Positions 33,626-64,000 of a DNA stretch of 64,000 nucleotides are shown here, one piece after another. The notes below the pieces were generated by a model. That model worked only from the letters and a program-made list of their open reading frames with translations, did no database searches and was not told the origin of the DNA. Where the stretch lies: NCBI GenBank assembly GCA_016213895.1, contig JACQZJ010000076.1, positions 1,291 to 65,290 on the forward strand, written 5' to 3'. The position numbers and the translations under genes were made by a program. Origin of the DNA: Planctomycetota bacterium (GTDB lineage: Bacteria; Planctomycetota; B15-G4; JADJEK01). Within the stretch, counting starts at the first letter, position 1. The number at the start of each line of letters is the position of its first letter.

Positions 33626-33630
33626 CCAGG

Positions 33631-34026
33631 GTGAGGGGTAAGGAGGTCGACGCGCTGCGCGTGGTCTGGCACGGCCACTACCTCACCTACTTCGAGGAGG
33701 GGCGCACCGCGTTCGGCCGGGAGTACTCCCTCGGCTACGAGCAGATCCTCGCCGCGGGCTGCGTCGCGCCCCTGGTGCGGGTGGAGGTCGACTTCCTGGC
33801 GCCGGCGACGTACGGGGACCTGCTCAGCGTGCGCACGCGCATGCACGCGGCCAGCGGCGCGCGCCTCGACTTCTCGTACCTGATCACGGACGGCGCCGGC
33901 CGCAGCCTCGCGGCCGGGTCCTCGGTGCAGGTCTTCACCGAGCTGGACGGGACCCTGGTGCTGACGCGTCCCCCCTTCTTCGAGCGCTTCCTGGCCGAGA
34001 ATGCCGGGCGGATGAGGGCGGGATGA
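33631..34026 (+). CDS. 4HBT/YbgC-like acyl-CoA (or acyl-ACP) thioesterase, hot-dog fold
   Basis: VVWHGHYLTYFEEGRTAFGRE matches the 4HBT block (HxNYLxYFExxRxxx). The gene is 131 aa, has an AAGGAGG RBS, and overlaps the next gene via ATGA. Confidence 0.7.
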   Translation: MRGKEVDALRVVWHGHYLTYFEEGRTAFGREYSLGYEQILAAGCVAPLVRVEVDFLAPATYGDLLSVRTRMHAASGARLDFSYLITDGAGRSLAAGSSVQVFTELDGTLVLTRPPFFERFLAENAGRMRAG

Positions 34027-34439
34027 GCGCACGCGGCGGGGCGGCGGGGCTGCGCGAGGAGGCGGCGGGCTGCTTGACCGCCGTCGAGCCGGGCGCGGGC
34101 GCGCTCAGCGCGACCTTCCTCTTCCCGCGGGATCTCGCCGTGTTCGCCGGGCACTTTCCCGGCTCTCCGCTGGTGCCCGGGGTCTACCTGGTCGAGGCGG
34201 TGCGCGCGGCGCTGGAGCGGGCGCGCGGCCGCTCCCTCAGGCTGGTCGAGGTGCGGGACGCGCGCTTCACGGCGCCGGTCCTGCCGGGCGACCTGGTGCG
34301 CGTGGAGGTGGCGCACGCGGGCGGCGCTCCGCCCTGGTCGTGCCAGGCGGTCCTGTCGCGGCGCGGGGAGGTCGCGGCGCGCATCGAACTCGTGCTGGCG
34401 CTCGAGGAAGGGCAACGGGACGCGGACCCTGGGCTATGA
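34023..34439 (+). CDS. FabZ-like 3-hydroxyacyl-ACP dehydratase (hot-dog fold)
   Basis: FAGHFPGSPLVPGVYLVEAVRAA matches the FabZ catalytic block FxGHFPxxPVMPGVLxxEA. Confidence 0.75.
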   Translation: MSARGGAAGLREEAAGCLTAVEPGAGALSATFLFPRDLAVFAGHFPGSPLVPGVYLVEAVRAALERARGRSLRLVEVRDARFTAPVLPGDLVRVEVAHAGGAPPWSCQAVLSRRGEVAARIELVLALEEGQRDADPGL

Positions 34440-34482
34440 TGGCGGTACCGCCCGCGCCGGGGCGCAAGGCGGCGAGAGAACC

Positions 34483-35715
34483 GTGAGCCTGGAACAGCGA
34501 GTCGTCGTCACCGGCATGGGGGCGATCTCCTGCCTCGGAGAGAGCCTGGAGGAGATCGCGCGCGCCCTGCGCGAGGGGCGCTCCGGCGTGGTCTACGCGC
34601 CTGAGCGCAAGGAGCGCGGCTTCCGCTCGGCGCTCATGACGCGCCTGCCGGAGGTAGACGTCAAGGGCGAGCTGGATCGTAAGGCGCGCAAGTTCATGCC
34701 CGAGGCCGCGGTCTACTGCGCCCTCGCCGCCAACCGCGCGCTCCGCTCCGCGCATCTCCGCCGCGAGCAGGTGGCGCGCCCGGACGCCGGCATCATCATC
34801 GGCAACGACTCCTCCTCGGAGTGCCTGCCGGAGATGATGGCCACGCTGCAGCAGTACGGCGAGTCGCACTTCCTCGGCTCGAACATGGTCATCAAGGTCA
34901 TGAACTCGACCGTGTCCATGAACCTCGGGCCGTACCTCGGTGCCAAGGGCATCAACCTGACGATCAGCGCGGCGTGCAGCAGCGGCGCGCACGCTCTCGG
35001 TCTCGCCTACCAGCTCATCCGCTCCGGCGCGCAGCGCCTGATCTTCGCCGGCGGCGCCCAGGAGACCAACTGGGTGTCGATGGTGAGCTTCGACGCGCTC
35101 AACACCTTCAGCGTGCGCCACGAGGACCCGCGCGCCGCGTCGCGGCCGTTCGACCGCGGCCGCGACGGCCTCGTGCCCGGCGGCGGCGGCGCGCTGCTCG
35201 TGCTGGAGAGCCTGGAGAGCGCGCGCGCGCGCGACGCGCGCATCTACGGCGAGATCGTGGGCTACGCCTTCTCCTCGGACGGCGACCATCTGACGCTGCC
35301 TTCCGGGGACGGCGCGCTGCGCTGCATGCGGGCGGCGCTGGCCGCGGCCGGGATCGCGCCGCGCGACGTGGACTACATCAACGCCCACGCCACATCGACG
35401 CCGCAGGGCGACCAGGTGGAGGCCGGCGCCATCCACGAGCTGTTCGGCGCCGCCGGCCCGCCGGTCTCCTCGACCAAGTCGATGACCGGCCACGAGTGCT
35501 GGATGGCGGGCGCCTCCGAGGCGATCTACTGCCTGCTCATGATGCAGGACGGCTTCCTCGCCCCGAACATCAACTTCGAGGCGTTCGACGAGCAGACGCC
35601 CGAGATCAACGTCATCGCCGAGACGCTCACCGGCGAGGCGGACGTCGTGCTGTCGAACTCCTTCGGGTTCGGCGGCACGAACGCATGCCTCGTGCTGAAG
35701 CGCTTCCGGCAGTAG
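34483..35715 (+). CDS. Beta-ketoacyl-ACP synthase (KAS I/II-type)
   Basis: The active-site Cys is in ISAACSSGAHA. The His residues are in INAHATSTPQGD and MTGHECWMAGASE, followed by C-terminal NSFGFGGTNA, at 410 aa. Confidence 0.9.
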   Translation: MSLEQRVVVTGMGAISCLGESLEEIARALREGRSGVVYAPERKERGFRSALMTRLPEVDVKGELDRKARKFMPEAAVYCALAANRALRSAHLRREQVARPDAGIIIGNDSSSECLPEMMATLQQYGESHFLGSNMVIKVMNSTVSMNLGPYLGAKGINLTISAACSSGAHALGLAYQLIRSGAQRLIFAGGAQETNWVSMVSFDALNTFSVRHEDPRAASRPFDRGRDGLVPGGGGALLVLESLESARARDARIYGEIVGYAFSSDGDHLTLPSGDGALRCMRAALAAAGIAPRDVDYINAHATSTPQGDQVEAGAIHELFGAAGPPVSSTKSMTGHECWMAGASEAIYCLLMMQDGFLAPNINFEAFDEQTPEINVIAETLTGEADVVLSNSFGFGGTNACLVLKRFRQ

Positions 35716-35731
35716 GGAGGGGCGGGCGGCA

Positions 35732-37210
35732 GTGGCGCAGGCCGACGTCGTCGTCATCGGCGCAGGGCTGTCGGGGCTGGTTTGCGCCATCCTCCAGGCC
35801 GAGACCGGGCGCAGGGTGGTCGTGCTCGAGCGCCACGATGTGCCCGGCGGCTACCAGCAGCAGTTCCAGCGCAAGGGCACGGTGTTCGACGTCGGCTACC
35901 ACTACATGGGCTCGACCGCCCCCGGGCGGCCCATGCGCCAGTTCCTGGAGTACCTGCGCATCTGGGACAGGCTGCGCCTCTTGCCGCTTCCCGAGGACGC
36001 GGCCATCGAGGTGGCGAACGGCGCGCGGCGCTTCGCTTACCCGAACGGCTGGGCGCGCTTCCGGGAGAAGGCGCTCGCCGCCTGGCCGCACGAACGGGCG
36101 GGGCTCGAGCGCATGTTCCAGGACATTCCCGCCGTGACCGGGGAGTACAAGTGGTTCGACCTGGCGCGCGGCAAACCGTACGCGCACCCGCTCGACCTCG
36201 GGTTCACGTCGATCTCACTCGCGGAGTACCTGCGGCCGCTGGTGCAGGACCCCTGGCTCCTGCAGGTGCTGGGGGTGCAGGCCTTCAACCTGGGACTGCT
36301 GGCGCACGAGGCGCCGTGGGTCAAGTACGCCCTCGCCCTGCGCTCGAACTTCGACCTGACCAGCCGCATCGCCGGCGGCGGCGGCGCGCTGGTCGCGGCG
36401 CTGGTGGAGCGCGGCCGCGAACTCGGCGTGGACTACCACCTGCGCTCCGAGGTCGTGGGCTTCGAGTGCGCGCAGCGGCGCGTGCGGCGCGTGCGCACCG
36501 CCGACGGCGGCGCCTACGCGGCCGACCTGTTCATCGCCGCCTGCCACCCGAAGGCGGTCCTGGCGCGCATCCGCGACGAGGACGTCAGCCCGGTTTTCAA
36601 GGAGCGCGTGCAGAGCATGAAGGACTCGCGCGGCGCGCTGCAGGTGTTCCTGCGCCTCAAGGAGCTGCCGCGCTCGCTCGGCCGCTCCTGCCTGATGATC
36701 GTGGACGAGGAGGAGGCGCGCCGCGATCCGCCGATCCACATCGTGCTGGTGTGCAACCCCGCCGCCGTCGAGGGGCCGGAGCTCGGCGGCCCGCGCCTGG
36801 AGCTCATGACCTTCCTGGAGCACGCGCCGTTCGCCTCCTGGGCCGGGACGCAGGCCATGCGGCGCGGGGCGGAGTATGAGCGCTTCAAGTGGGCCCTCGC
36901 GCAGCGCGTCATCGACTTGACCACGCGCTTCGCGCCCGAGCTGCCGGAGCTGATCGAGGACATGTACGCGTCGACTCCGCTCACCGACGAGTGGTACACG
37001 CTGAACGCGCACGGCGCGGTCTTCGGCGTGAGCCACGACGTGACCCAGCAGGGCCTGGCGCGGCCGCTGCCGCGCGTGCGCCTGCGCAACCTCTTCTTCA
37101 GCGGGCACTCGATCCAGATGCCCGGCATCTGCGGCGTCTTCATAAACGCCTTCGACACGTGCGAGATGCTGCGCGGCGACGGCGCGCTCTTCGCCGCGGT
37201 CGCGACCTGA
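35732..37210 (+). CDS. FAD-dependent oxidoreductase of the phytoene-desaturase/CrtI-like family
   Basis: VVVIGAGLSGLVCA...VLERHDVPGGY is the dinucleotide-binding fold. The 492-aa length and overall layout match CrtI-type amine-oxidase-fold enzymes. Confidence 0.8.
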   Translation: MAQADVVVIGAGLSGLVCAILQAETGRRVVVLERHDVPGGYQQQFQRKGTVFDVGYHYMGSTAPGRPMRQFLEYLRIWDRLRLLPLPEDAAIEVANGARRFAYPNGWARFREKALAAWPHERAGLERMFQDIPAVTGEYKWFDLARGKPYAHPLDLGFTSISLAEYLRPLVQDPWLLQVLGVQAFNLGLLAHEAPWVKYALALRSNFDLTSRIAGGGGALVAALVERGRELGVDYHLRSEVVGFECAQRRVRRVRTADGGAYAADLFIAACHPKAVLARIRDEDVSPVFKERVQSMKDSRGALQVFLRLKELPRSLGRSCLMIVDEEEARRDPPIHIVLVCNPAAVEGPELGGPRLELMTFLEHAPFASWAGTQAMRRGAEYERFKWALAQRVIDLTTRFAPELPELIEDMYASTPLTDEWYTLNAHGAVFGVSHDVTQQGLARPLPRVRLRNLFFSGHSIQMPGICGVFINAFDTCEMLRGDGALFAAVAT

Positions 37211-41598: not shown

Positions 41599-41656
41599 CG
41601 CTTTCCCGGTTCCGGGGCCGGGTGCGCGCCTTCCGGTGCATGGTGTGCGCGACGAA
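41599..41656. repeat. Copy B of the conserved ~60-bp element, in the divergent region between the AstE-like and GT2-fusion genes
   Basis: The sequence is GCTTTCCCGGTTCCGGGGCCGGGTGCGCGCCTTCCGGTGCATGGTGTGCGCGACGAATG. Confidence 0.8.
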
Positions 41657-41796
41657 TGATGCCTGGCCTGCTGGCGGCGGAGGCGACGCGGGCGGCTCGG
41701 CGCGGACGTGCCGCCGAAGCCGCGGGCGAAGGGCCCGCGCCTGCCAACCATGAACGCGCCGAAGACGGCGCGGGGCATCGGCTAGGATCGGCCGGG

Positions 41797-44412
41797 ATGA
41801 GGCCCTGCGTCATTGTTCCGGCCTACGAGAACGAGCGCACCGTCGCCGCGGTGGCGCGCGGCGCCGCGGCGCTGGGGCTTCCGGTCATCGTCGTGGACGA
41901 CGGGTCGCGCGATCGCACGGCCGAGGCCGCGCGGGAGATCGACGGCGTGACCGTGCTGCGCCACGAGCGGAACCAGGGGAAGGGCGCGGCCCTGCGGAGC
42001 GGGTTCTTGGCGGCCGCGGAGCGGGGATTCACGCACGCGCTGACCATCGACGCGGACGGCCAGCACCTGCCCGAGGACATTCCGCGTTTGCTGGAAGCCG
42101 CGCGCGCGGAGCCCGCGGCGCTCATCCTCGGCGCGCGCGACCTGGCCGCGGCCGGGGCCGGGCGCGGCTCGCGCTTCGGCCGCGCCTTCTCGAACTTCTG
42201 GACCCTGGTCGAGACCGGGCTCCGGCTCGAGGACACGCAGAGCGGATTCCGCCTCTATCCCCTCGGGGCGCTCGCGGCGTTGCGCCTCGAGGCCAGCGGC
42301 TACGACTTCGAGATCGAGGCGCTGGTCAAGGCCGCCTGGAGCGGCGTGCCCGTGCGCTCCGTCCCGGTGCGCGCGCGCTACTTCCAGGGAGCGGAGCGCG
42401 TGTCGCACTTCCGGCCGTTCCTGGACTTCGCCCGCATCAGCCGCCTGAACACGCGCCTGGTGACGCTGCGCATCTGTCTGCCGCGAGCCTGCCTGGCAGC
42501 CCTGTTCCGGCGCGATCTGGCCCATCTCTCCTGGCCGCGGCGTCTGTGGCGAGGCCTCGCGCTCGCCCGCGGCCGCGCGCGGCGCAGGGTCCCTCTGCCG
42601 TTCCTGCTGCTTCCGGCCGGAACCGGCCTCGTGCTCGCGGCCGCGGCGCTGCAGGGCGCGGCGCGGGTCGTCTCGTTCGCGGGCGCGCTCGGGCTCCTCG
42701 CCGGCGCCGCCGCCATCCTGGCGTTTCTCTTCCGGCGCGCCGAGCTCTTCCTGGCGGCCTTCCTGCCGGCCGCGGTCGGACTGCTGCTGGCGCTCGGTGT
42801 CGCGGGCTTCCTGGGCGGCGTTTCTCCAGGTCCGGCCGCGGGCGCCGCGCTTGCCGCGGCACTCGCGCTCGAGGCGGCCGCCCTGCTCCTCGCCTATCTG
42901 CGCCGCTTCCGCGGGCAGAAGGACCGCGTCGCCCTGGTCGCCTGGAGCGTGCCCGTCACGGCCGCGCTCGCCGCCCTCGCCTGGCGCGCCGGCCTGGGAC
43001 CGCCGTGGCCGCAAGGCTGGCCGGCCCTGGTCGCGGGAACGTGCGGCGTGCTGCTCCTCTCGCCCTTCTGCTGCCGCGCCGTGCTGGTGCGCGCCGGGCC
43101 AAACGGCACGCCCGCGCCCGCGAACATGCTCGCGGCCCTGCGCGTGTTCTGGCTGATGCTCGCCGGTGGCGCGCGGCACTTCCTGGCGCGCGCGCCGGGC
43201 GCGAACCGGCGAGCGGCGCAGCGCGCCGCGGTCGATCGCATCCAGGCCATCGCCCGCGCCATCCAGCAGGGCGTGCCGCTCGGCCGGCGCGTCTTCCTCG
43301 GTCTGGAGCGCATCCCGCGCGGCCAGCCCTGCGTCGTGGTCGCGAACCACGAGTCCATGTACGACATCATGGCAGCTCTCGCCCTGCCGCTGCCCCTTCG
43401 CATCCTCGCCAAGAGGTGGGTGTGGAGGATGCCCGTGCTCGGGGCCATGGTGCGCGCCGCCGGCTACATCCTGGTCGAGGAGGATCGCACGGAGGCCCTG
43501 TTCGAACAGGCGGCCCGTTCGCTCGCGGAAGGCGTCTCGCTTCTCGTCTTTCCCGAGGGGACGCGCAGCCGCAGCGGCAGGATGGGCCGCTTCCACAACG
43601 GCGCCTTCGCCATCGCGCGGCGCTGCGGCGTGCCCGTGCTGCCGGTGGCCATGGTGAACACGCGCGAGACGGTTCCGCCGGGCACCTGGTGGGTGGGGGA
43701 GCACGACGCGCGCATCGTCGTGCTCGAGGCCATGGACCCGGGCGCCTTCAGCGGCGAGGGCGCCGACCGCAGGATGGCTCGCGCGGCGCGCGAGCGCATC
43801 GCCGCGTGCTGCCGCGACCTCTGGCTCGAGACCCAGTACGGGCCGGTCTGGCATCGCATCCTCTCCGGCATGTACCGCTGCCGGGGACTGCGCGCGAACG
43901 CGGCCGCGCGCGGGATCCGGAGCGATCCGTTCCTTCACGCCCTGCCGCGCCTCTGCGCGGGGAACGGGCGCGTCCTCATCCTCGGCTGCGGCTTCGGTCT
44001 CAGCGCCGCGCGCCTGGCGCTCGCCTATCCGGCGCGCGAGATCATCGCGGTCGGGCCGCCCGGCCGCGCGCTGCGCGCCGCGCGCGCCGCCCTGGGGGAC
44101 CGCTTCCCCGTCGCCTTCGTCGCGGCGGATCCAGCCGCGTGCGAGGCGCCGCCGGCGCAGTGGACCATCCTCGACGTCCTGGCTCTGCGCCAGGAGGCGT
44201 TTCCCGCGCTCTTGCGGCGCGTGGCCGGGGTCGCGGCGCCGGGCGCGCGCCTGCTGCTGCGCGGCCGGCAGGGCGACTGCGAGCGAGCGCTCGCGGAATG
44301 CGGCTTCGCCGTGGACGAGGAGCGCGGCGACCTCTGCCGGGCCGGAGAGGTCGTGCTCCTCTGCACCCCGCGGGCGTTCAGCCCGTCTGGCGGAACGTCG
44401 CGGTGCGGTTGA
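41797..44412 (+). CDS. Tri-domain fusion: GT2 glycosyltransferase + polytopic membrane region + lysophospholipid-acyltransferase (PlsC-type HX4D) + class I SAM methyltransferase
   Basis: The start is MRPCVIVPAYENERT. The GT2 region has the motifs VVDDGSRDRT...TIDADGQH. The membrane region has Ala/Leu-rich TM runs. The acyltransferase region has VVANHESMYD (HX4D) and FPEGTRS. The C-terminal region has VLILGCGFG (GxGxG SAM motif). Confidence 0.8.
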   Translation: MRPCVIVPAYENERTVAAVARGAAALGLPVIVVDDGSRDRTAEAAREIDGVTVLRHERNQGKGAALRSGFLAAAERGFTHALTIDADGQHLPEDIPRLLEAARAEPAALILGARDLAAAGAGRGSRFGRAFSNFWTLVETGLRLEDTQSGFRLYPLGALAALRLEASGYDFEIEALVKAAWSGVPVRSVPVRARYFQGAERVSHFRPFLDFARISRLNTRLVTLRICLPRACLAALFRRDLAHLSWPRRLWRGLALARGRARRRVPLPFLLLPAGTGLVLAAAALQGAARVVSFAGALGLLAGAAAILAFLFRRAELFLAAFLPAAVGLLLALGVAGFLGGVSPGPAAGAALAAALALEAAALLLAYLRRFRGQKDRVALVAWSVPVTAALAALAWRAGLGPPWPQGWPALVAGTCGVLLLSPFCCRAVLVRAGPNGTPAPANMLAALRVFWLMLAGGARHFLARAPGANRRAAQRAAVDRIQAIARAIQQGVPLGRRVFLGLERIPRGQPCVVVANHESMYDIMAALALPLPLRILAKRWVWRMPVLGAMVRAAGYILVEEDRTEALFEQAARSLAEGVSLLVFPEGTRSRSGRMGRFHNGAFAIARRCGVPVLPVAMVNTRETVPPGTWWVGEHDARIVVLEAMDPGAFSGEGADRRMARAARERIAACCRDLWLETQYGPVWHRILSGMYRCRGLRANAAARGIRSDPFLHALPRLCAGNGRVLILGCGFGLSAARLALAYPAREIIAVGPPGRALRAARAALGDRFPVAFVAADPAACEAPPAQWTILDVLALRQEAFPALLRRVAGVAAPGARLLLRGRQGDCERALAECGFAVDEERGDLCRAGEVVLLCTPRAFSPSGGTSRCG

Positions 44413-51458: not shown

Positions 51459-51545
51459 GAATGGCGGCGAGGAGACTCGCCACCAGTCCGATCGAGACCA
51501 GGTTCCGCCACTTCAGGGCGGCTGGCGCTGACGCGGAGGGCCCGA
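51459..51545. repeat. Degenerate direct duplicate (~85% identity) of the 5' coding end of the MFP gene (51095-51190) located in the intergenic region
   Basis: Compare gcggcgaggaacatcgccgccagtccgatcgagaccaagatccgccacctcagggcggctggcgc with gcggcgaggagactcgccaccagtccgatcgagaccaggttccgccacttcagggcggctggcgc. The start codon is lost in the copy. Confidence 0.8.
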
Positions 51546-51595
51546 CCGTGCCGCGGCGCGCGCCGGCCCGCGAGAGTGCGAAGGCCCAGCGCACC

Positions 51596-52258
51596 ATGGC
51601 GCAGGACGACAGGCAGCTCGGACCGCCGTCGAGCAGGATCCTCCTGACTCGCGTTCGCGCCGGGGACGACGACGCGTATCGCGAGATGTTCGCGCGGTAC
51701 ACCGAGCGCCTGGAGAAGAGGATGGTCTCGGCGCTCGGGCCCAAGCTGCGCCGCCGCCTGGGGGTCGACGACCTCCTCCAGGACGTGTGGACGCAGTTCA
51801 GCCGGAATGCCGGCCGCCTGGAGTACCGCGGCGGCGGGTCGCTCTACCGCTGGCTGTGCCGCGTGGCGGACAACGTGGTGCGCATGGCCCAGCGCGCGCA
51901 CGTGGTGTCGGATTGCCGCGCCGTGGCGCGCGAGGACACGTTCCAGCCGGCGCCCGGCTCCAGCGGGTTCGAGGCGCGCCTGCCGGCGTCCATCGACCCG
52001 TCGCCGTCGGCCGCGGCCTCGAACACGGAGCGCCTCGAGGCCCTCTCGCGCCTGCTCGGGCGGCTCTCGGACGACCACCGCGGGGTGATCCGGCTGGTCT
52101 ACGTGGAGCGGCGCTCGGTGGCGGATGCTGCCCAGGTCCTGGAACGATCGCCGAACGCCGTCAAGAAGCTGCTCGGCCGCGCCATGGCGCGCTGCGCCGA
52201 GCTCGCGGCCAGCGATTCCTTCGCGGCGTACCGCTCGGATGTCGAGCTGCGCGGGTAG
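51596..52258 (+). CDS. ECF (group IV) sigma-70 factor
   Basis: Starting from MAQDDRQLGPPSSRILLTRVRAGDDDAYREMFARYTERL there is a region 2 block (DLLQDVWTQF), and a region 4 block LSDDHRGVIRLVYVERRSVADAAQVLERSPNAVKKLLGRAMARC. Confidence 0.8.
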   Translation: MAQDDRQLGPPSSRILLTRVRAGDDDAYREMFARYTERLEKRMVSALGPKLRRRLGVDDLLQDVWTQFSRNAGRLEYRGGGSLYRWLCRVADNVVRMAQRAHVVSDCRAVAREDTFQPAPGSSGFEARLPASIDPSPSAAASNTERLEALSRLLGRLSDDHRGVIRLVYVERRSVADAAQVLERSPNAVKKLLGRAMARCAELAASDSFAAYRSDVELRG

Positions 52259-52276: not shown

Positions 52277-55417
<3,141 letters not shown>

Positions 55418-55505: not shown

Positions 55506-57095
55506 TTACTGGAAGGTGAGCGTCAGTCCGCTGCTGGCCGAGAAGCCGTTGACGGTCAGGGCGTCGGCGACGAAGGCCTGCGTGTGGACGGACTGGCCGG
55601 CGAGACCGGGCGGGACGACCGCGGCGACCGCGGCCTGGCCGCCGGAGTCGGTGAACAGCAGAAGGAGCGGCCCGACGAGCGGCCACACGTTCAGGGTGCA
55701 TGGCCCGGCCGGCACGCTCGCCGGCTGCGCGCCGAAGACCAGGAGCGCCGGGTTGTAGGGCACGCCCTCGTCCAGGAGCAGCGTCACGGCCGCGAAGGCC
55801 TTGAGGTCGCAGGGCGCCTCGATCACGAGCCGCGGCGCCTTGCCGCTCCCACCTGGGCAGCCGGACCCGAAGGGGCTCACGCCGTCGCAGCGGCCGGAGA
55901 TGAGGTCCACGCGCCACTGTTTGTGGTCGGACGTGATGGGCACGCGCCGGAAGTAGTCGCCGAAGCCGTCGCCGTCGACATCCTCGACGCCGGTGACCAT
56001 CCGGCCGGGCGTGCGGGCCAGCAGGTCGAGGCTGCCGCCGCGCCGGATCTCCATGTCATCGGAGACGCCATAGCGGATGTAGTCGGCCACGGCGTCGCCG
56101 TTGATGTTGCCGAGGCCGTCCATGGGGCTGTTGTCGCTGACAGACACCACGGACAGTTCCAGCACCGCGCTGCTTGTTCCATCGAGGAGCGAGATTGCCG
56201 GAGTCGATCCTCCGGCGACGCCCAGCGACCACGCCAGCACGTCGCAGGTACCATCGGCGTTCACGTCGCCTGCAGCTCCGGCCTCCCAACCGAGGAAGTC
56301 CAGATACCCACCGGTCCAGCAGCGCAGAAGCGACGCGTCGAAGCCCGAAAGCTCGTAGACGGCCCCGGCACCCGCCGGCTCGCCCGGGGCCCCCACGACG
56401 AAGTCGGGGCGGCCGTCCTGATTCACGTCCCCGACGGAGTCAGCAGACCGACCGTGGGTGGCCATCCAGACCGTGCCGTGAAGGTCGAACAGGACCGCGC
56501 CGTTCATGCCCGAGAACACCTGCACGCGGCCCGCGTCCATCACGCCCAAGACGTCCGCCGTGGGACTGGCCACGAGCCAGTCGGGAAACCCGTCGAGGTT
56601 CACATCCCCGAGGCCGGTGACGGTTCCACCGAATATGTCGTAGGCGGCGCTTCCGAAGCCGGTCCAGAGCGTGCCGGCGCCGCCGCCCCCTTCGATGCGC
56701 GCCATGCCCGCCCACGTGGCGACCGTACTGTCCTGAGGAGTCCCGATCAGGAGGTCATCGAAGCCGTCCCCGTTCACGTCGCCCACCGCGGAGACCTCGC
56801 CCGTGTGGTCCTCGGCGTTCTGCCCGAAGAACGTGGCAAGAGGACTCGTGCAGGAGATCGTCGAGTACACGAACACGGCTCCGGCATTCGGCGCCACTGT
56901 CGAATCGCGGAGATCCGACAGCGCGAGGTCCGGAAAGCCGTCACCGTTGAAGTCGCCGACTCTGCACAGGCCGTAGCCGAACTCGCTGTCGTTCGTACCA
57001 CCAAGCCAGGAGCAGAGGGTGCCCTGTGCCTCTGCCCTCCCACCGATGAGCCAGGAGATGCACAAGAGAAGGGTCGATGTCAGGCATCTTGTCAT
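55506..57095 (-). CDS. Secreted FG-GAP repeat (integrin-alpha-like beta-propeller) protein
   Basis: There is a signal peptide, and repeated GDVNGDGFDD, GDVNLDGFPD, GDVNQDGRPD and GDVNADGTCD blocks. Confidence 0.75.
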   Translation of the reverse strand: MTRCLTSTLLLCISWLIGGRAEAQGTLCSWLGGTNDSEFGYGLCRVGDFNGDGFPDLALSDLRDSTVAPNAGAVFVYSTISCTSPLATFFGQNAEDHTGEVSAVGDVNGDGFDDLLIGTPQDSTVATWAGMARIEGGGGAGTLWTGFGSAAYDIFGGTVTGLGDVNLDGFPDWLVASPTADVLGVMDAGRVQVFSGMNGAVLFDLHGTVWMATHGRSADSVGDVNQDGRPDFVVGAPGEPAGAGAVYELSGFDASLLRCWTGGYLDFLGWEAGAAGDVNADGTCDVLAWSLGVAGGSTPAISLLDGTSSAVLELSVVSVSDNSPMDGLGNINGDAVADYIRYGVSDDMEIRRGGSLDLLARTPGRMVTGVEDVDGDGFGDYFRRVPITSDHKQWRVDLISGRCDGVSPFGSGCPGGSGKAPRLVIEAPCDLKAFAAVTLLLDEGVPYNPALLVFGAQPASVPAGPCTLNVWPLVGPLLLLFTDSGGQAAVAAVVPPGLAGQSVHTQAFVADALTVNGFSASSGLTLTFQ

Positions 57096-57127
57096 CGCCG
57101 GTTCCTCGCTACGTTCTGATTACCTGA

Positions 57128-57711
57128 TCAGGGCACCAGGAAGGTCGCCACGAACATGTCCTTGGAACCGCCGGAGTTGGCTTGCGCCGCCGGGGTCGGA
57201 ATCGGCAACGACGAGCCGTCCGTGGCGCCGAGGCCGTCCGCTCCTTCCACCCGGATGGAGAGGTCGTTTACCGCGGCCGGGTGGTCCACGAGCAGGTCGT
57301 AGCGCGGCGCGCCGCCTTCGCACGTCAGCCGGACGTCGACGCCCGGAGACGCGTCCGGCCAGGTGAGATGGTCGTAGGCGGGGACCCTCGGCCGCCAGCC
57401 AGAGGGATCGCCGATCAGGAAGTGGAAGAGGCCCTTCTGGTCAGCGGGCGCCCAGATGGCGGAGCGAGGAGTCTCCAGGTGGAAGGCGACCATCTGAGCC
57501 CGAAGGCTCGGGCCAGCGCCGGTGATGGGAATCACCTGGAAGCCGTCGTCGGTCGAGAGCATCTGGAAGCAGCCCGCGCGCGCCCGGAAGCGGGGCGCCT
57601 CCGCGGTCGAGTCGGCGGCGAAGAGCGACGGCACCAGGGAGGCCCGGATGTCCTTCAGCTCGAGCGCGGTGGAAGCGTCAGTCAGCAGAAGAGAAGAGAA
57701 GAGAAGAGCAT
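57128..57711 (-). CDS. Hypothetical secreted protein
   Basis: Manual extension of the 168-aa ORF upstream to the ATG gives MLFSSLLLTDASTALELKDIRASLVPSLFAADSTAEA... (signal-like). There is no family match. Confidence 0.4.
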
Positions 57712-57954
57712 GGAGAGCCTCCTTCGGTGCTACGTGTCCTAATCCAACGTGTTGAGGATACCCGGTTTCCGCGCCGTGGCAACGGGTTTCTCAGGCCGGG
57801 GCCTGTGCCACATCCTGGCGGCGCCGCAACCAAACGCAGCGACTCCCCGGGCGACTGCTTCGGCGCCGCCGCGATGTGAAGATCCTGGCGGCTCGTGGCA
57901 CAGAAGCCCGCGGCCGTTTGTGCGCCGTAGCGGTCTGCCGTAGCATGCCGGCGC

Positions 57955-59694
57955 ATGGAGTTCGCCCGACTCGCGCGCGCGGCGCTCGTGGCCGTGCTGT
58001 TCGTGTGCGCCTGCGAAGCGCTGGCGCGGCGCGCCGGCTTCCTCGATCCCACGGTCATCGACGATCCCTACCTCGGCCTGCCCGGCTCGGGGCCGCTCTA
58101 CCGGCCGGCGCGGGCGCAGGACGGCGCGGCCTGGTTCGAGCGTTCCCCGAACAAGGAGAGCTACCGTCCCGAGCGCTTCCCGCGCGACAAGGACCCGGCC
58201 GAGTACCGCGTGTTCTGCATCGGCGGCTCCTCGGTGCGGTCCATCGCCTTCGTCGAGCCGGACGCCTCCTTTCCGCGCCTGATCGAGATCTACCTCGAGG
58301 CGCTCCTGCCGGGACGGGTGCCGCGCGTGGTGAACGCCGGCGGCGGCGGCGCCGGCTCCATCCAGAACCTCGAGGTGCTGCGCGAGGTCCTCGACCACGA
58401 GCCCGACCTGATCGTGGTCTATCCAGAGGGCGGCGAGAAGAACTACATCCCGCCGTCCCCGCAGGGCGTGCTGGCGCGGCGCGACGACACGAGCGCCCTG
58501 CGCGTCGGCGCGCGCCGCCTGCTCGCCCGCCTGCGCGTCTACCACGCGGTTCGGCTGGCCTTCCAGGGGCTCCTGCCGCGCGCGCGCGGCGGCGACGCAA
58601 GGCTCTCGGCCTTCTCGGCCTTCGCCATGTACGCCACGTCGCGCGCTTTCGCCAAGGACAGTTTCACGCGTCTGTTCGAGCTGAAGGCGGATCGGCCGCC
58701 GGTGCTCATGCGCCACGTCATTCCCGCCGAGGAAGTGGCGCTCGCTCAGGCGCGCCTGCGGAAGAACCTGGCGGCCATGGCCGAGTGCGCCGCGGGGCGC
58801 GGCGTGCCGCTCCTCTTCGTGCAGCCGCAGCGCAACCTGAAGTCGTCCTTCTACCTGCGCTTCCACATCGACCCGGACGAGCTCCGGCCGGACGCGCTCG
58901 AGGAGTGGCGCGCGGCCTACGCCGCGGGCCTCGCGGCCAAGCGTGCCGGGCGCCACGAGCAAGCGCTCGCGCACCTCTCTGCGGTGCGCGCGTGCTACGT
59001 CGAGGATCGGGACGAGATCCTGGCCTTCTACCTGGCCGAGTGCCTGGAGGCGCTGGGGCGGAAGGACGAAGCCCTCGAGGAGTACGCGCGACCCTACCGC
59101 AGGCACCCGCTGCACGACCTCCTGCGCGAGGTCGCGGCCGCGCAGGGCGTCCCGCTGGTCGATCCCTTCCCCGCCCTGGTCGAGGCGGCCGCGGGCGGCG
59201 CGCCCGGTTACGACCTGTTCATCGACTCGTTTCACCCGGCCGCGGAGACGAACCGCATCATCGCGCGCGCCGTGGTCGAGGCGCTCGCGCGTCACGGCCT
59301 GGCGCCAGGACTGGTCCAGCTTGACGGCGCCGCGCTCGCGGCCGCCGAGCGCGCCGTGGCCGAGGTGGTCGCGCGCGCCGCGCCGCCGCCGCATACGCTC
59401 ATGCTGCGCGCCATCCTCGCCCGGGACTTCGCCGAGGCGGCGCGCATCGGCCGAGCCATTCCCGAGGCGCAGCTCGTGGGCGACCCGCGGCGCGGCGTGC
59501 CGGGCGAGATGGTGGTCGAGCCGCTTTACCTCGGGTGGGCGCTCGCGCGCCTGGGCAGGTGGCAGGAGGCGCGCGCGCTGCACGCGCAGCTTTCCGCCAC
59601 CTGGGGCCGGCGCGGCGCGCGCCTGCCGCCCCTCGACACGGACGAGGCCATGATCCGGAACGTCTTCTCCGGCGACGTGTTCGCCTGGTTCTGA
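57955..59694 (+). CDS. Membrane-anchored SGNH-fold hydrolase/acyltransferase-like protein (DltD/AlgX-type) with TPR-like C-terminal half
   Basis: There is an N-terminal TM (LVAVLFVCACEAL). The GDS-like block VFCIGGSSV and the DSFHP (DxxH) block are present. The C-terminal helical repeats are TPR-like (EALGRKDEALEEYARPY...). Confidence 0.65.
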   Translation: MEFARLARAALVAVLFVCACEALARRAGFLDPTVIDDPYLGLPGSGPLYRPARAQDGAAWFERSPNKESYRPERFPRDKDPAEYRVFCIGGSSVRSIAFVEPDASFPRLIEIYLEALLPGRVPRVVNAGGGGAGSIQNLEVLREVLDHEPDLIVVYPEGGEKNYIPPSPQGVLARRDDTSALRVGARRLLARLRVYHAVRLAFQGLLPRARGGDARLSAFSAFAMYATSRAFAKDSFTRLFELKADRPPVLMRHVIPAEEVALAQARLRKNLAAMAECAAGRGVPLLFVQPQRNLKSSFYLRFHIDPDELRPDALEEWRAAYAAGLAAKRAGRHEQALAHLSAVRACYVEDRDEILAFYLAECLEALGRKDEALEEYARPYRRHPLHDLLREVAAAQGVPLVDPFPALVEAAAGGAPGYDLFIDSFHPAAETNRIIARAVVEALARHGLAPGLVQLDGAALAAAERAVAEVVARAAPPPHTLMLRAILARDFAEAARIGRAIPEAQLVGDPRRGVPGEMVVEPLYLGWALARLGRWQEARALHAQLSATWGRRGARLPPLDTDEAMIRNVFSGDVFAWF

Positions 59695-59697
59695 ACC

Positions 59698-59859
59698 ATG
59701 CGTGAGTCACAGCGAGTCGTTCGGCGCGCGCGCCGGCTGCTCGGCCTGGCCTGGAGCGAACTGCTCGTTCCCGTGCTGGTCGCGGCCGGGCTCTTCTTCA
59801 TCGCCGTGGCCCTGATCGAGGGCTCGCCGCTTGAGCCGTTCCTGTACGCGGTGTTCTGA
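59698..59859 (+). CDS. Candidate 53-aa single-TM membrane peptide immediately downstream of the SGNH-TPR gene (not in ORF track)
   Basis: Translation gives MRESQRVVRRARRLLGLAWSELLVPVLVAAGLFFIAVALIEGSPLEPFLYAVF. The ATG lies 3 nt after the upstream TGA. The size and topology are reminiscent of DltX-like peptides. Confidence 0.35.
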   Translation: MRESQRVVRRARRLLGLAWSELLVPVLVAAGLFFIAVALIEGSPLEPFLYAVF

Positions 59860-59888
59860 GCGCGGCGCGTCCTTGCGCGGGCGCCGGG

Positions 59889-61088
59889 CTACCCCGCGCC
59901 GAACAGCGCCGCGAAGTAGGCGAGAGCCGGCTCCAGGCGGCTCGGGTCGATCGCGACCAGCACCCAGGTCAGGCACACGAAGTGGAAGGTGAGGAGGACG
60001 CAGAGGACGCGGTAGAGACGCGAAGCGGCGAGCCGCTTCTTCAGGCGGAAGCGCCGCCGCAGCCACTGCGTCCAGGCTTGGTGCAGGGAGAGGCCGGCGC
60101 CGTGCAGGAAGCCCCACGCGATCCAGCCGGCGTTCGGCCCGTGCCACAGGCCGCAGAGCGTCATGGACACGAGGGCGGCGAGATGCGGCCGCAGGCGCGA
60201 GGCCGAGCGGCCAGAGAGCGGCAGGAACAAGTAGTCGCGGATCCAGAAGGAGAGCGACAGGTGCCAGCCGCGCCAGAACTCGGCGATGCTGCCGCGCAGA
60301 TAGGGATTGTCGAAGTTCTCCGCCAGGCGGATGCCGAGCAGGCGCGCCGCGCCGATCGCCAGGTCGCTGTAGCCCGCGAAGTCGAAGTAGGCGAAGAGGG
60401 CCACGGCGTAGAGCGCGCTCCAGGCGCGCCACCAGGGTGGGCCGGGCGCATCGGGCGCGAAGGAGAGGATGGGCGCGGCCCACTGCAGCAAGATCGAGCC
60501 GAGCACCACGCGCTTCAGCAGGCCGAAGAAGATCCGCTTCACGCCTTCCCCGACGTCGGCGAGATCGGGCCGGCCGAGACGGTCGAAGGTCTCCTTGAAG
60601 TGATCGGCGCGCTCGATGGGGCCGGCGATGAGCGCCGGGAAGAACGAGTTGTAGGCCAGGAAGTCGAGGAGGCCGAAATGCAGCGTTCCTTGGCGGCGCG
60701 CGTCCAGCACGAAGTGCAGCGCGCGCAGCGTGTAGTAGGACGCGCCGATGAAGAGCACGAGGCGCGATCCAGCCAAGTTGCTGGCGCTGGCGCCGGCGCT
60801 CGCCGCGGCGAGGAACGGGAGCTTGGGCAGGAAGAGGAAGGCGAGCAGCGGAGCCGCGGCCAGCCAGAGGAGGGCCCGCGGCGCCCCGCGCGCCGCGACG
60901 CGCGCCGCGGCGAAGGCCAGGCAGGACGCCGCCAGGAAGAGCAGCGGGGCGAGCGGATGGAACAGGTAGAGGAAGGCGGCGTTGAACAGGAGCAGCAGGC
61001 CGCGCTTCGCCCTTCCGGGGAGCGGCAAGAGCAGCGCCCCGGCCGCGGCCGCCAGGAACAGGAGCGCGCCGCTGCTGATCACGTCCAC
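59889..61088 (-). CDS. MBOAT-family membrane-bound O-acyltransferase (DltB/AlgI-like)
   Basis: The protein is polytopic. It has the conserved MBOAT histidine block TLCGLWHGPNAGWIAWGF and the WRGWHLSLSFWIRDYLFLPL block. GTG/ATG start. Confidence 0.85.
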   Translation of the reverse strand: MDVISSGALLFLAAAAGALLLPLPGRAKRGLLLLFNAAFLYLFHPLAPLLFLAASCLAFAAARVAARGAPRALLWLAAAPLLAFLFLPKLPFLAAASAGASASNLAGSRLVLFIGASYYTLRALHFVLDARRQGTLHFGLLDFLAYNSFFPALIAGPIERADHFKETFDRLGRPDLADVGEGVKRIFFGLLKRVVLGSILLQWAAPILSFAPDAPGPPWWRAWSALYAVALFAYFDFAGYSDLAIGAARLLGIRLAENFDNPYLRGSIAEFWRGWHLSLSFWIRDYLFLPLSGRSASRLRPHLAALVSMTLCGLWHGPNAGWIAWGFLHGAGLSLHQAWTQWLRRRFRLKKRLAASRLYRVLCVLLTFHFVCLTWVLVAIDPSRLEPALAYFAALFGAG

Positions 61089-61094
61089 GGGCGG

Positions 61095-61364
61095 TCACCG
61101 GCGCGCGGCGATGTAGCGCACGATCTTGTCGATGGACTCGAAGCGCTCGACCGAGGCGTCGCCGTCCGGCACCCTGACGCCGTACGCGCGCTCGATCAGG
61201 AGCAGGAGCTCGGCCAGGCCGAAGGAGTCGAGGATGCCCTCTTCCGCGAGCGACTGGGAATCGGCGGGCAGGAGCGCGGGATCGCCGCCGATCTTGGCCA
61301 GGAAGTGGGCGCGCAGCGGAGCGCGGTCGACGGCGGCGGCGTCACTCATGGTCCGTTCCGGCAC
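61095..61364 (-). CDS. Small acyl/peptidyl carrier protein (DltC-like)
   Basis: At about 85 aa, it has a phosphopantetheine-site-like LDSFGLAELLLLIERAYG (DSxG + helix). It overlaps the 3' end of the ligase gene. Confidence 0.7.
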   Translation of the reverse strand: MPERTMSDAAAVDRAPLRAHFLAKIGGDPALLPADSQSLAEEGILDSFGLAELLLLIERAYGVRVPDGDASVERFESIDKIVRYIAARR

Positions 61365-63051
61365 TTCTCTTCCGCGGCTCGATCTCGTGCAGGCGGCGCA
61401 GGTTGGGGATGCGGGCGATCTTACCGCTGGAGGTCTTGTAGAGCCACTTGTGCGGCGCGACGAACACGCGCTCGCAGCGCGCGTTCAGGCGCTGGAAAAC
61501 CTGGCGCCTGACGAAGCGCACGATGTCCGCGTGCACCGCGGGGTCCTCGGATTTCGACTCGGCGATCACGATCAGCTTCTGCGTGCCCGTTTCCTCGTCC
61601 GCCACGCCGATGGCGGCCACGCGGCCGGCGACCACGGCCGGGTGCTCGGCGGCCAGATACTCGACGTCCTGCGGGTAGATGTTGTCGCCGCCGATGATGA
61701 TCAGGTCGCTCTTGCGGCCGGTGACGTAGAGGATGCCGCCGGCGCGATAGCCGAGGTCGCCGCTGAAGTACCAGCCGTCCGCCACGCGCTCGGCCGTCGC
61801 CTCCGGGTTGTTGTGGTAGCCGTGGAACAGGCACGCCGAGCGGATGGCGATCTCGCCCACGCGCCGCTCGGGCAGCTCCTGGCGGCTGTCGTCCACGATC
61901 TTGAAGGCCGTGCCGGCGAATCCGCGGCCCACGCCCAGCAGGCGCAGGGCGCGCGGGTGCTCCGGGGGCACGGGCGCGGCCTCGTGCCTCTCCTGCAGAG
62001 CGAGGCGGTCGATGCAGTCCACCTGGATCGGCTCGCGATGGCCGGCGCCGATGACCGAGTTCACCACCTCGGCCATGCCGTAGACGATGCCGAGCGCCTC
62101 GCGGCGGAAGCCGGCGCCGGCGAAGCGCGCCGCGAACATCTCATGGCTGTCGTGGAGGCACGGCTCGGCGCCGTTGCCGCACAAGCGCAGAGAGGAGAGG
62201 TCGATGCCCGCGAGCTCCTCCTCGCGCACGCGCTTGGTCATGAAGTTGAAGGCGAAGTTCGGCTGCCAGTAGACCGTCGCGCGGAAGCGCGTGATCGCCT
62301 CGAGCGCGATCGCCGGCCGGGCCACCCAGTGGACGGGCGAGATGAGCACGAACTCGGCGCCGAGCACGAGCGGGTGGATGGCGGCGCACACGAGGCCCCA
62401 GTCGTGATAGAGCGGCACCCAGGTGACGAAGACGTCGCGCGCGTCCATCTCGAAGAAGCCGCCCACGCCGGCGCACTCGGCCAGGATCGCTCGGTGCGAG
62501 AGCTCCGCCCCCTTCTGCAGGCCGGTGCTGCCGGACGAGTACTGGATGAGCGCCACGTCTTCCGGCCCGGCGGCATGCGGCTCTCCGGCCGGCGGCGCAT
62601 CCGCGTCCACCTCCTCCATGACGATGAGACGCGGCGCGAGCTCGGCGGCGCCGGCGAGCAGCCCGACCAGCTCCCGCGCCAGCTCCGCGTAGGCGATGAC
62701 CGCGTGCGGCCGCGTGCGCAGCGCCAGCGCGCGCAGGTCCTCGCGGTACTTCTCGGCGTGCAGCTTGCCCGTCGGGAAGGGCAGGAAGGCCGGGATGGCG
62801 CCGAGCCACATGGCGCCGTAGAAGGCCGGGAGCATGTCCGGGTGGTGGCGCAGGATGATGAGCACCACCTGGCCGGGGAGAGTTCCGGCCGCGGCGAGGC
62901 GCGCCGCGTACTGGCGCGTCCGGCGCTCCAGGTCCGCGTAGGTCTGCAGCGCGGGCGGGCCGTCCGGGAAGAGGTAGCGCGCGTGCGTACGTTCTGGCGT
63001 GGCGCGCGCGCGCCGGCAAAGGACGTCTATGATCGTGCGCGGTTCGGTCAT
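61342..63051 (-). CDS. AMP-dependent synthetase/ligase of the fatty-acyl-AMP ligase (FAAL)/DltA-like type
   Basis: The AMP-binding motif I is IQYSSGSTGLQKGAELSH. YGMAEV, GWYFSGDLGY and SSGKIAR (A10 lysine) are also present, at 569 aa. Confidence 0.85.
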   Translation of the reverse strand: MTEPRTIIDVLCRRARATPERTHARYLFPDGPPALQTYADLERRTRQYAARLAAAGTLPGQVVLIILRHHPDMLPAFYGAMWLGAIPAFLPFPTGKLHAEKYREDLRALALRTRPHAVIAYAELARELVGLLAGAAELAPRLIVMEEVDADAPPAGEPHAAGPEDVALIQYSSGSTGLQKGAELSHRAILAECAGVGGFFEMDARDVFVTWVPLYHDWGLVCAAIHPLVLGAEFVLISPVHWVARPAIALEAITRFRATVYWQPNFAFNFMTKRVREEELAGIDLSSLRLCGNGAEPCLHDSHEMFAARFAGAGFRREALGIVYGMAEVVNSVIGAGHREPIQVDCIDRLALQERHEAAPVPPEHPRALRLLGVGRGFAGTAFKIVDDSRQELPERRVGEIAIRSACLFHGYHNNPEATAERVADGWYFSGDLGYRAGGILYVTGRKSDLIIIGGDNIYPQDVEYLAAEHPAVVAGRVAAIGVADEETGTQKLIVIAESKSEDPAVHADIVRFVRRQVFQRLNARCERVFVAPHKWLYKTSSGKIARIPNLRRLHEIEPRKRSAGTDHE

Positions 63052-63101
63052 GCGAAACGTCTCGCGGGCCGGGCCATACAGTAGGGCTCGAGGAGGGCCG
63101 C

Positions 63102-63437
63102 ATGTCCGAGTTCCCGGAGTTCATTCGCGACCTGCCGCAGGCTGACGTTCCCATTTCCGGCGTGACCGGCCGCCTGCTGCAGGGCGAGCGGAACCAGGTG
63201 GTCTTCTTCTCCTTTGCGCGGGACGTGGCCGTGCCCGAGCACAGCCACGGCGCGCAGTGGGAGATCGTGGTCGCGGGCGAGGTGCGGCTGACGCTCCAGG
63301 GCGAGGAGCGGACCTACCGCGCGGGAGAGAGCTTCTTCGTGCCCGCGGGGGCGCAGCACAGCGCACAGGTGCGCGCCGGCTTCCGCTCCATCGCCGTCTT
63401 CGATCAGGCGGACCGCTATCGCGCTCTTCCCGCGTGA
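63102..63437 (+). CDS. Cupin-domain protein
   Basis: At 111 aa, it has a PEHSHGAQWEIVVAGEV (cupin motif 1 with His) and a GESFFVPAGAQHSAQ (motif 2). Confidence 0.75.
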   Translation: MSEFPEFIRDLPQADVPISGVTGRLLQGERNQVVFFSFARDVAVPEHSHGAQWEIVVAGEVRLTLQGEERTYRAGESFFVPAGAQHSAQVRAGFRSIAVFDQADRYRALPA

Positions 63438-63454
63438 CGCGGGCGGCGCCGCTC

Positions 63455-64000
63455 ACTTGCGGCGCAGGCAGAGCGCGGCGTTCCCCTTGTGGCGCGCCTC
63501 GCGGCCGTGCGCGAGGCCCGCGGCGCGCGCGGGCCGCTTCAGTCCCTCCATCTGGCTGGTCCCCACGGCGAGGAGGAGCAGGCCCTTGCCGTCCGCGCGC
63601 AGGGCAGCCCCGCAGGCGCTGAGCGTCGCGGCCAGGGCGCGCGGCCCTTCCTTCCACAGGAGGGGGCCTGCGATCAGGTCGTAGCCGGGGTCAAGGGCGC
63701 CGGCTGGAGCCGGGAGCCAGGGCGTCGCGGCGAGCGCGGGGGCCGGGACGAGCCGCGTCTCCTCCGTCCGTCCCCAGGCCTGCAGCGCGGCCGCGATGTT
63801 GGCGCGCGCCGCTTGCTCGGCCAGCGTGTCGCGCCCGAGCAGCGCGATCTCGGCGGGACGGCGCGTCTCGAGCAGCAGGGCCGGGAGGAAGCCGTGCTCG
63901 GGATTGAAGGCCAGGATGCGCTCGCCTCCCGCGGCCGGAGCGAGCGCCTGCGCTGCGAGGCGCGCCAGGAGGGGCGTGCGATGGTGGGGGGAATCGAACT
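63455..64000 (-). CDS. Partial CDS (3' end in window): possible small-domain SAM methyltransferase-like protein
   Basis: Manual minus-strand translation ending ...GKGLLLLAVGTSQMEGLKRPARAAGLAHGREARHKGNAALCLRRK* is coherent over about 180 codons. The match to a family is tentative. Confidence 0.35.

Follow-up and report, generated by a model that had tools for sequence, protein, structure and literature searches.

A candidate carrier-dependent acyl relay of Dlt-like build, with a fatty-acyl-AMP-ligase-type loading enzyme, in Planctomycetota

How might a planctomycete pass an activated acyl group across its cytoplasmic membrane, and which acyl group would that be? The question is raised by five adjoining genes in a 64-kb stretch of DNA from a Planctomycetota bacterium (assembly GCA_016213895.1, contig JACQZJ010000076.1; the whole stretch, with a G+C content of 70–75%, is called the window here). 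A preliminary description of the window read these genes as a system that loads an acyl or aminoacyl group onto a carrier protein and transfers it across the membrane to an extracytoplasmic target. Here, we find that all five genes are present where that description had placed them, that every catalytic element is present and conserved, and that the genes are linked, which supports its reading. On the basis of sequence comparison and analogy with characterized pathways, we consider it probable that they form a carrier-dependent acyl relay across the cytoplasmic membrane, Dlt-like in its build but fed by a fatty-acyl-AMP ligase (FAAL). The features of the module are as follows.

57955–59694, plus strand: putative membrane-anchored SGNH enzyme with TPR-like inserts (SGNH-TPR), 579 amino acids, assigned by its SGNH catalytic set and fold
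59698–59859, plus strand: DltX-like microprotein, 53 amino acids, with a single predicted transmembrane (TM) helix and an FXYXXF end
59839–59856, plus strand: predicted acyl-shuttle motif FLYAVF of the microprotein, a match to FXYXXF, with the Tyr50 codon at 59845–59847
59889–61088, minus strand: DltB-like MBOAT, 399 amino acids, assigned by Pfam MBOAT and a DltB match in the PDB
61095–61349 or 61095–61364, minus strand: putative phosphopantetheine carrier, 84 amino acids (ATG at 61349) or 89 amino acids (GTG at 61364), assigned by Pfam PP-binding
61342–63051, minus strand: FAAL-type adenylating ligase, 569 amino acids, assigned by Pfam AMP-binding
61951–62019, minus strand: predicted FAAL-specific insertion, ligase residues C345–A367, opposite a gap in E. 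coli FadD

Three of the open reading frames (ORFs) thus lie on the minus strand and two on the plus strand, and the two sets are convergent. The four longer genes have coding-type codon bias, with a third-position G+C fraction of 0.93–0.95; the 53-amino-acid ORF is under the size limit of this codon analysis, and all five are called as genes by independent callers in Logan/ENA assemblies. This includes the small ORF, which exists and encodes a single-TM peptide as first described, but which is not unannotated everywhere. The ligase and carrier genes share 8 nt if the carrier starts at the ATG, which overlaps the stop codon of the ligase (ATGAGTGA), and 23 nt if it starts at the GTG; the MBOAT gene starts 6 nt past the carrier stop. 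The 23-nt overlap reported earlier therefore holds for the GTG start and not for the ATG start, the 7-nt gap becomes 6 nt, and the carrier, although real, is 84 or 89 residues long and not 85. The 84-residue start is the one called in two of the compared loci (L001 and L086; L-numbers are labels of such loci throughout), and orthologues also start at ATG. On the plus strand, the microprotein gene begins 3 nt downstream of the SGNH-TPR stop codon, and its ORF lies 29 nt from the MBOAT stop. A scan of 57000–63600 for promoters and terminators gave no signal above shuffle expectation.

Is this arrangement a product of chance? We compared 12 distinct orthologous loci from Planctomycetota, 11 of which are GTDB species representatives. 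The five genes stand together in 10 of them; ligase and carrier adjoin the MBOAT gene in every locus whose contig reaches that far, one locus ending before them, and SGNH-TPR and microprotein lie beside the MBOAT set in 11. The co-occurrence expected from the earlier reading is thus observed, even though the layout varies: most loci are convergent, L011 is co-directional in the order SGNH–microprotein–ligase–carrier–MBOAT, and in L003/L016 the module is split by a 2.4-kb insert carrying two unrelated genes. The locus of the closest relative is labeled as a Phycisphaera metagenome-assembled genome (MAG). Flanking genes are unrelated among the loci, save for L006, a locus with 85–94% identity. 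We also compared six nearby genes of the window with the orthologous loci, namely those for a Ser/Thr kinase-FGE protein and a sigma factor, and the four that directly flank the module (FG-GAP, DUF7948 and cupin genes, plus the last ORF, 63453–63998); only the FG-GAP, DUF7948 and cupin genes are kept, and solely in the near-identical L006. What is conserved is thus the set of five genes, and since their arrangement recurs in orthologous loci with unrelated flanks it is not a matter of chance.

Which acid would the ligase load? The protein matches Pfam AMP-binding with an E-value of 4e-54, and its core motifs are all intact (SSGSTGLQKG, PLYHDWGL, YGMAE, GDLGY, GRKSD and SSGKIAR, the last with Lys544); G174, T176, G177, K180, D432, R446, and K544 are invariant in an alignment that includes FAAL-like relatives and FadD. 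Orthologues in the same gene position are 53–91% identical. The top matches are FAALs, both in the PDB (Legionella 3kxw, 2.8e-64; E. coli 3pbk, 5.6e-60) and in NCBIfam, where the PRK09192 fatty acyl-AMP ligase model (NF006624, FAAL subfamily) leads with 329 bits. In the alignment, 23 residues are missing from E. coli FadD at C345–A367, where the ligase and its FAAL-like relatives are continuous, and no large gap interrupts the match of this region to the FAALs 3kxw and 3pbk. The best matches and an insertion that FadD lacks thus set the enzyme apart from ordinary acyl-CoA synthetases, in agreement with the FAAL-type assignment of the preliminary description. The ligase reaches no curated FAAL cut-off in NCBIfam (at best 329 bits, against 600), and it appears to be FAAL-like while belonging to no curated or named FAAL subfamily.

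Amino-acid-activating adenylation domains, such as those of non-ribosomal peptide synthetases, have in motif A4 an Asp that binds the alpha-amino group, and PLYHDWGL is the FAAL form of this motif. The window ligase has PLYHDWGL, with His at the position of that Asp. No DltA was found among the 48 PDB sequences matched at E ≤ 1e-20 or among the top 25 NCBIfam families, and we reject placement of the ligase in the DltA or amino-acid-adenylating clade on account of this His and the missing DltA match. Relatives with 55–60% identity also occur outside the module; one of them, 56% identical and with nearly identical pocket motifs, belongs to a FAAL plus acyl carrier protein (ACP) pair ahead of a modular polyketide synthase (PKS). 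Because of the FAAL insertion, the PLYHDWGL motif and this PKS-loading nearest outside relative, a fatty or fatty-like acid is the likely cargo and D-alanine an unlikely one.

Other relatives of the ligase (52–55% identity) are found in KSB1 (L088:4202–8710) and Acidobacteria (L089:6670–8734), where they directly follow a gene for an 82–87-amino-acid protein without a Pfam match and sit in glycosyltransferase/sulfotransferase clusters; L088 also has an FG-GAP/ASPIC protein upstream. These loci may represent another FAAL-fed glycolipid or polymer pathway.

The carrier scores 25.8 bits against Pfam PP-binding (cut-off 20.8). Its predicted attachment serine, encoded at 61224–61226, is Ser42 in the 84-residue and Ser47 in the 89-residue numbering, and the segment in which it lies (EGILDSFGLAEL, with the serine in LDSFG) is invariant in 11 orthologues, so that both the profile match and the conserved serine bear out the carrier assignment made before. 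Against the NCBIfam ACP and DltC models only weak matches were obtained, every one below cut-off, and because it falls below all these specific cut-offs the protein is best described as a generic stand-alone phosphopantetheine carrier.

The MBOAT matches Pfam MBOAT with an E-value of 3e-23, and its sole sequence matches in the PDB are the DltB entries 6bug and 8jem (E 5e-40), with the WHxSLSFW and GLWHG motifs aligned. His276 and His316 align to DltB His289 and His336, and both are invariant in 23 orthologues. An AlphaFold2 model (pLDDT 81.9) finds DltB as its best Foldseek match (TM-score 0.72–0.73), followed by the palmitoyl-transferring HHAT and PORCN (0.61–0.70); LPCAT3 is also listed among the fold neighbors. 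With 399 residues the protein has a DltB-like length, and its C-terminus has no fused FXYXXF. These features point to a DltB-type architecture, that is, carrier-dependent and with a split shuttle, as far as sequence and model allow, although the score of 196 bits misses the cut-off of the DltB equivalog TIGR04091 (375 bits). The protein is 100% identical to a database entry, "MBOAT family protein [Planctomycetes bacterium]". We found about 80 MBOAT cluster representatives at identities of at least 47%, beyond which scores fall sharply, and every source name that bears a taxon is Planctomycetes or Planctomycetota.

If the MBOAT has no fused shuttle, what would take its place? In DltX, the C-terminal FXYXXF acts as an acyl shuttle: DltB moves D-alanine from DltC to its tyrosine, from which DltD then takes it, and PatA and other MBOATs that use acetyl-CoA carry this hexapeptide fused to their own chain (PMC12148441). 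The microprotein of the module has an Arg-rich N-terminus (six Arg in residues 1–13), one TM helix at residues 22–40 (hydropathy peak 2.93) and a predicted extracytoplasmic tail, EGSPLEPFLYAVF, ending in FLYAVF. The window has 826 ORFs that end at a stop codon and are 30 or more amino acids long, and this is the only one that ends in F.Y..F, against an expectation of 0.001. A homologue follows the SGNH gene directly in 11 of the 12 orthologous loci, called for instance as a 53-amino-acid gene in L086 and as a 51-amino-acid gene in L001. Searching 1.84 billion representatives exhaustively, we found 13 further microproteins of 45–64 amino acids (50%-identity cluster representatives) with the same ending and variable N-termini, and the ending FLY[AG][VI]F is present in all orthologues, i.e., in 11 loci and these 13 representatives. 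By its length, single TM helix, predicted N-in/C-out topology and C-terminal FXYXXF, the microprotein seems to be DltX-like; what had been proposed from gene position is now matched at the level of the motif, which is invariant among relatives.

The fifth gene encodes a protein with an N-terminal TM helix (residues 2–27), a TPR-like helical insert (about 315–397) between SGNH strands and a C-terminal helical domain (about 459–578). Its predicted catalytic set comprises Ser92 (codon 58228–58230), Gly129/Gly130, Asn163, and Asp424 with His427 (59224–59235), none of which varies among 39 homologues. The protein thus has the Ser, Gly, Asn and Asp-x-x-His of the SGNH superfamily in blocks I, II, III, and V, on a confidently predicted SGNH fold. 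The role of DltD that was first proposed for this protein agrees with its position, but it is not a member of the DltD family, an assignment we reject as no DltD match was obtained in Pfam or NCBIfam. Its family is small: we found 57 proteins, for which all taxon-bearing source names are Planctomycetes or Planctomycetota, the same distribution as that of the MBOAT clade.

How could these five proteins work together? From family membership, the ligase would activate a free carboxylic acid as its adenylate, a fatty acid of medium or long chain being the likeliest substrate, and pass it to the carrier, whose phosphopantetheine arm (on Ser42/Ser47) would hold it in thioester linkage. By analogy with DltB, the MBOAT would then bind the acyl-carrier at the cytoplasmic face and move the acyl group, via His316, to the tail tyrosine of the microprotein (Tyr50 of FLYAVF) at the outer face. 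As in the steps from DltX to DltD and from PatA to PatB, the acyl-tyrosine tail would hand the group to Ser92 of the SGNH-TPR protein, which in turn would attach it, at a hydroxyl or an amino group, to an acceptor outside the cytoplasm, be it a polysaccharide, peptidoglycan, lipopolysaccharide, a lipid or a protein. The gene context points to no acceptor, since no tested neighbor is conserved beyond the near-identical L006. More tentatively, the product might be long-chain fatty lipidation of an envelope polymer or protein along the path FAAL, carrier, MBOAT, tyrosine and SGNH enzyme, in which case the module would be a bacterial parallel, fed by a carrier, to the lipidation of Hedgehog and Wnt, the first Dlt-type relay known to move a cargo besides D-alanine, and one of a wider, so far undescribed set of carrier-dependent MBOAT systems in diderms with swapped ligases (a FAAL here, an acetate--CoA-ligase-like enzyme in Armatimonadota and Cytophagia); we put this forward as a possibility that falls short of an even chance.

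Several points weigh against the proposed relay. The FAAL assignment of the ligase rests on NCBIfam scores below cut-off and on about 33–35% identity to characterized FAALs. The SGNH-TPR fold is nearer to generic esterases than to known transferases, with DltD not among the top matches and PatB at rank 19, and judging from the model the protein could hydrolyze instead of transfer. The relay would also require a long acyl chain to pass a DltB-type tunnel. In a rough neighbor-joining tree of the 80 nearest MBOATs, which has no support values, the FAAL-linked clade stands beside fused-motif planctomycete MBOATs with DltB as the outgroup; because of this placement the Dlt-like design may have arisen more than once, i.e., its likeness to Dlt may be convergent. 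Finally, one of the orthologous loci, L008 (8374–13468), has neither an SGNH-TPR gene nor a microprotein within 7 kb, and the convergent position is taken there by three paralogous membrane-anchored proteins of 537–577 amino acids with CarboxypepD_reg domains.

Could the same relay carry a short or unusual acyl group, such as an acetyl, propionyl, hydroxy-, branched or aromatic one, in place of a medium- or long-chain fatty acid? Acetyl is the cargo of most known MBOAT-SGNH systems (PMC12148441), the PDB matches of the ligase include FAAL-clade loaders of non-fatty starters (McyG and a keto-acid-selecting domain), and modules of ACP, MBOAT, and microprotein in Armatimonadota and Cytophagia come with an acetate--CoA-ligase-like enzyme, from which short cargoes would occur in sister designs. 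We nevertheless judge this unlikely, though it survives better than the other alternatives: the nearest structural and family matches of the ligase are long-chain FAALs, a PKS-loading FAAL has almost the same pocket motifs, and for acetyl alone acetyl-CoA would do, as it does for PatA, without a ligase and a carrier.

The relay might also be an illusion of gene neighborhood, with ligase, carrier, and MBOAT acylating a membrane lipid directly, as eukaryotic MBOATs such as LPCAT3 do, while the SGNH protein acts as an independent esterase or lipase nearby. In favor of this, the two sets of genes form convergent transcription units of their own, the first set occurs without the second nearby in L008, and the best fold matches of the SGNH protein are, as said above, generic esterases. 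Against this stand the adjacency of the two sets in 11 of 12 loci, in three arrangements and between unrelated flanks, and the matching distributions of the SGNH-TPR family (57 proteins) and the MBOAT clade. Moreover, this clade has no fused tail, so that the sole supplier of FXYXXF is the microprotein, which always directly follows the SGNH gene. A direct acylation of lipid therefore seems improbable to us.

Aminoacylation of the Dlt type, which lowers surface charge, is found in Gram-positives and in some Gram-negatives. That the module is a true Dlt orthologue, activating D-alanine or another amino acid for transfer to an anionic envelope polymer whose charge it would reduce, is very hard to maintain: the five-part gene logic, DltB as the best MBOAT match, the DltX motif and the presence of DltC models among the weak carrier matches speak for it, but the ligase matches FAALs best, has the FAAL insertion and a His for the A4 Asp, and finds no DltA among the 48 PDB sequences and top 25 NCBIfam families, while the MBOAT stays at 196 of the 375 bits demanded for DltB and the SGNH protein lacks a DltD match. 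We thus retain the FAAL-fed, carrier-dependent relay as the probable reading of the five genes.

Does the rest of the window hold anything that belongs to this relay? The preliminary description had pointed to a second SGNH protein and a YfhO-like protein earlier in the window. The second SGNH gene is real (6624–8009, 461 amino acids, Lipase_GDSL_2 with 58 bits); for the YfhO-like protein we obtained no confirmation, and the most probable candidate (8571–10154, 527 amino acids) has no Pfam match. Both lie about 50 kb from the module, and their membership in it finds no support, as even the tested immediate flanks are not conserved. A polysaccharide deacetylase gene (10253–11011) lies by these two genes. 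Further along, at 32304–37210, the window contains a fatty-acid-synthase-like set (a FabG-like SDR, a 4HBT thioesterase, a FabA-like dehydratase, a ketoacyl synthase and an FAD amine-oxidase/desaturase-like protein), and at 41656–44412 a 918-amino-acid fusion of a GT2 and a PlsC-type acyltransferase. Their joint product could be an unusual lipid or glycolipid. These genes are 16–27 kb from the module, and a link to it was not found. The kinase-FGE gene mentioned above (52277–55417) encodes a 1046-amino-acid protein with an N-terminal Ser/Thr kinase and a C-terminal FGE-sulfatase domain, and directly follows the ECF-type sigma factor gene (51461–52258).

Is the module alone in its design? The wider survey of the 80 nearest MBOATs contains three or more further MBOAT designs beyond the FAAL-linked one. 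In one, short MBOATs of 385–435 amino acids are directly followed by a microprotein of about 40–60 amino acids ending in FIY[TVI][DE]F, and neither a carrier nor a ligase lies within 7 kb; the design occurs in Pelotomaculum/Desulfotomaculia, Chthonomonadales, Binatia, Myxococcota, and Vulcanimicrobiota (L023, L026, L028, L029, L031, L036–L044, L053, L061, L066, L072, L004/L054, and others) and is probably a split shuttle fed by CoA. In another, an ACP and a short MBOAT stand with a protein of about 320–365 amino acids without a family match and a microprotein ending in NPFxYxNF or PFVYARF (L074:3540–7976, L085:4793–8913, L050:3780–6307, and L059:6243–7813, from Armatimonadota, Cytophagia, Ignavibacteria, and Cloacimonadota). 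The ligase of L074 and L085 is acetate--CoA-ligase-like (PRK04319; 720 and 621 bits, respectively, against a cut-off of 729), and this set appears to be another type of MBOAT module that depends on a carrier, here loaded by a different enzyme. In a third design (L077:5724–10412, Tepidisphaerales; L081:5667–12711, Verrucomicrobiia), a weak-GDSL protein of 408–423 amino acids is followed by a fused-motif MBOAT of 471–472 amino acids, ending in FVYFQF or FVYLQF, and an ACP; L077 has a FAAL-like ligase that is 33% identical to that of the window and L081 another AMP-binding enzyme. From this layout, carrier-fed MBOATs exist with a fused shuttle too. In addition, three MAGs with an orthologous locus encode a second MBOAT of 496–626 residues (counted over the stop-to-stop ORF) with a fused SPFIYTNF tail (L018 in the MAG of L016, L024 in that of L015, and L030 in that of L014); in the rough tree these form the clade nearest to the FAAL-linked MBOATs. 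According to a 2025 paper, MBOAT-SGNH pathways other than Dlt have neither a carrier protein nor a microprotein like DltX (PMC12148441). The further designs among the 80 nearest MBOATs show that carriers and split shuttle peptides are, contrary to this statement, not unique to Dlt.

What would follow if the proposed relay is real? The shuttle by tyrosine would be a general, modular means of exporting activated acyl groups in which the ligase sets the cargo, and planctomycetes would carry an unrecognized fatty-acylated envelope component. The predicted catalytic residues, at which such a relay could be addressed, are Ser42/Ser47 of the carrier, His316 of the MBOAT, Tyr50 of the microprotein and Ser92 of the SGNH-TPR protein.

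How does the module compare with systems that are already known? In full-text literature searches we found no description of a FAAL-ACP-MBOAT system, and each known pathway shares some of its parts. AlmEFG, which modifies lipid A with glycine in Vibrio cholerae, is a Gram-negative envelope modification system with a DltA-like ligase and a DltC-like carrier; its transferase AlmG is, however, a lipid A acyltransferase of the cytoplasmic face and not an MBOAT, the system has no microprotein or SGNH partner, and its acyl group is an amino acid. HHAT, PORCN, and GOAT are MBOATs that move long- or medium-chain fatty acyl groups to a substrate across the membrane, as may be the case here. They differ in taking acyl-CoA as the donor and in acylating a protein directly, with no carrier, shuttle tyrosine or SGNH partner, and the homology is at the level of the superfamily only. 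The FAAL and ACP loading modules of PKS and lipopeptide pathways (mycobacterial FadD32/FadD28, and the Legionella and E. coli FAALs) share with the module the ligase family, the insertion and, judging from the overlapping carrier gene and the relative in a FAAL, ACP and PKS cluster, probably the hand-off to a carrier instead of CoA, whereas the acyl-carrier of the module would go to a membrane MBOAT and not to a ketosynthase or condensation domain. In PatA/PatB, which O-acetylate peptidoglycan, and in AlgI/AlgJ/AlgX and WssH/WssI, acetyl-CoA is used directly, without ligase or carrier, and the MBOAT bears the motif on a fused pair of additional TM helices (PMC12148441). In the module, by contrast, the donor would be a loaded carrier and the motif lies on a separate microprotein.

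The relay mechanism of the Dlt pathway itself was worked out only recently. This pathway, by which teichoic acids are D-alanylated in Firmicutes, has the same five roles, beginning with an adenylating enzyme that loads a small carrier. To our knowledge, no teichoic acid is known for planctomycetes, and the host of the module is a diderm. The likeness to Dlt extends to an MBOAT of about 400 amino acids without a fused tail, a separate single-TM microprotein of about 50 amino acids with FXYXXF, and an outer, membrane-anchored enzyme with Ser, His, and Asp (PMC12148441). The module departs from it in the order of its genes, which form two convergent units with the microprotein after the SGNH gene, in an MBOAT that is below the DltB equivalog cut-off and apart from DltB in the rough tree, and in an outer enzyme that has a canonical SGNH fold with TPR-like inserts and is not of the DltD family. 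Its ligase is of FAAL type and not DltA, and the acyl group is for this reason probably fatty and not D-alanine. The module has both a carrier and a DltX-like microprotein, in a diderm phylum and with a loading enzyme of the fatty-acid type.

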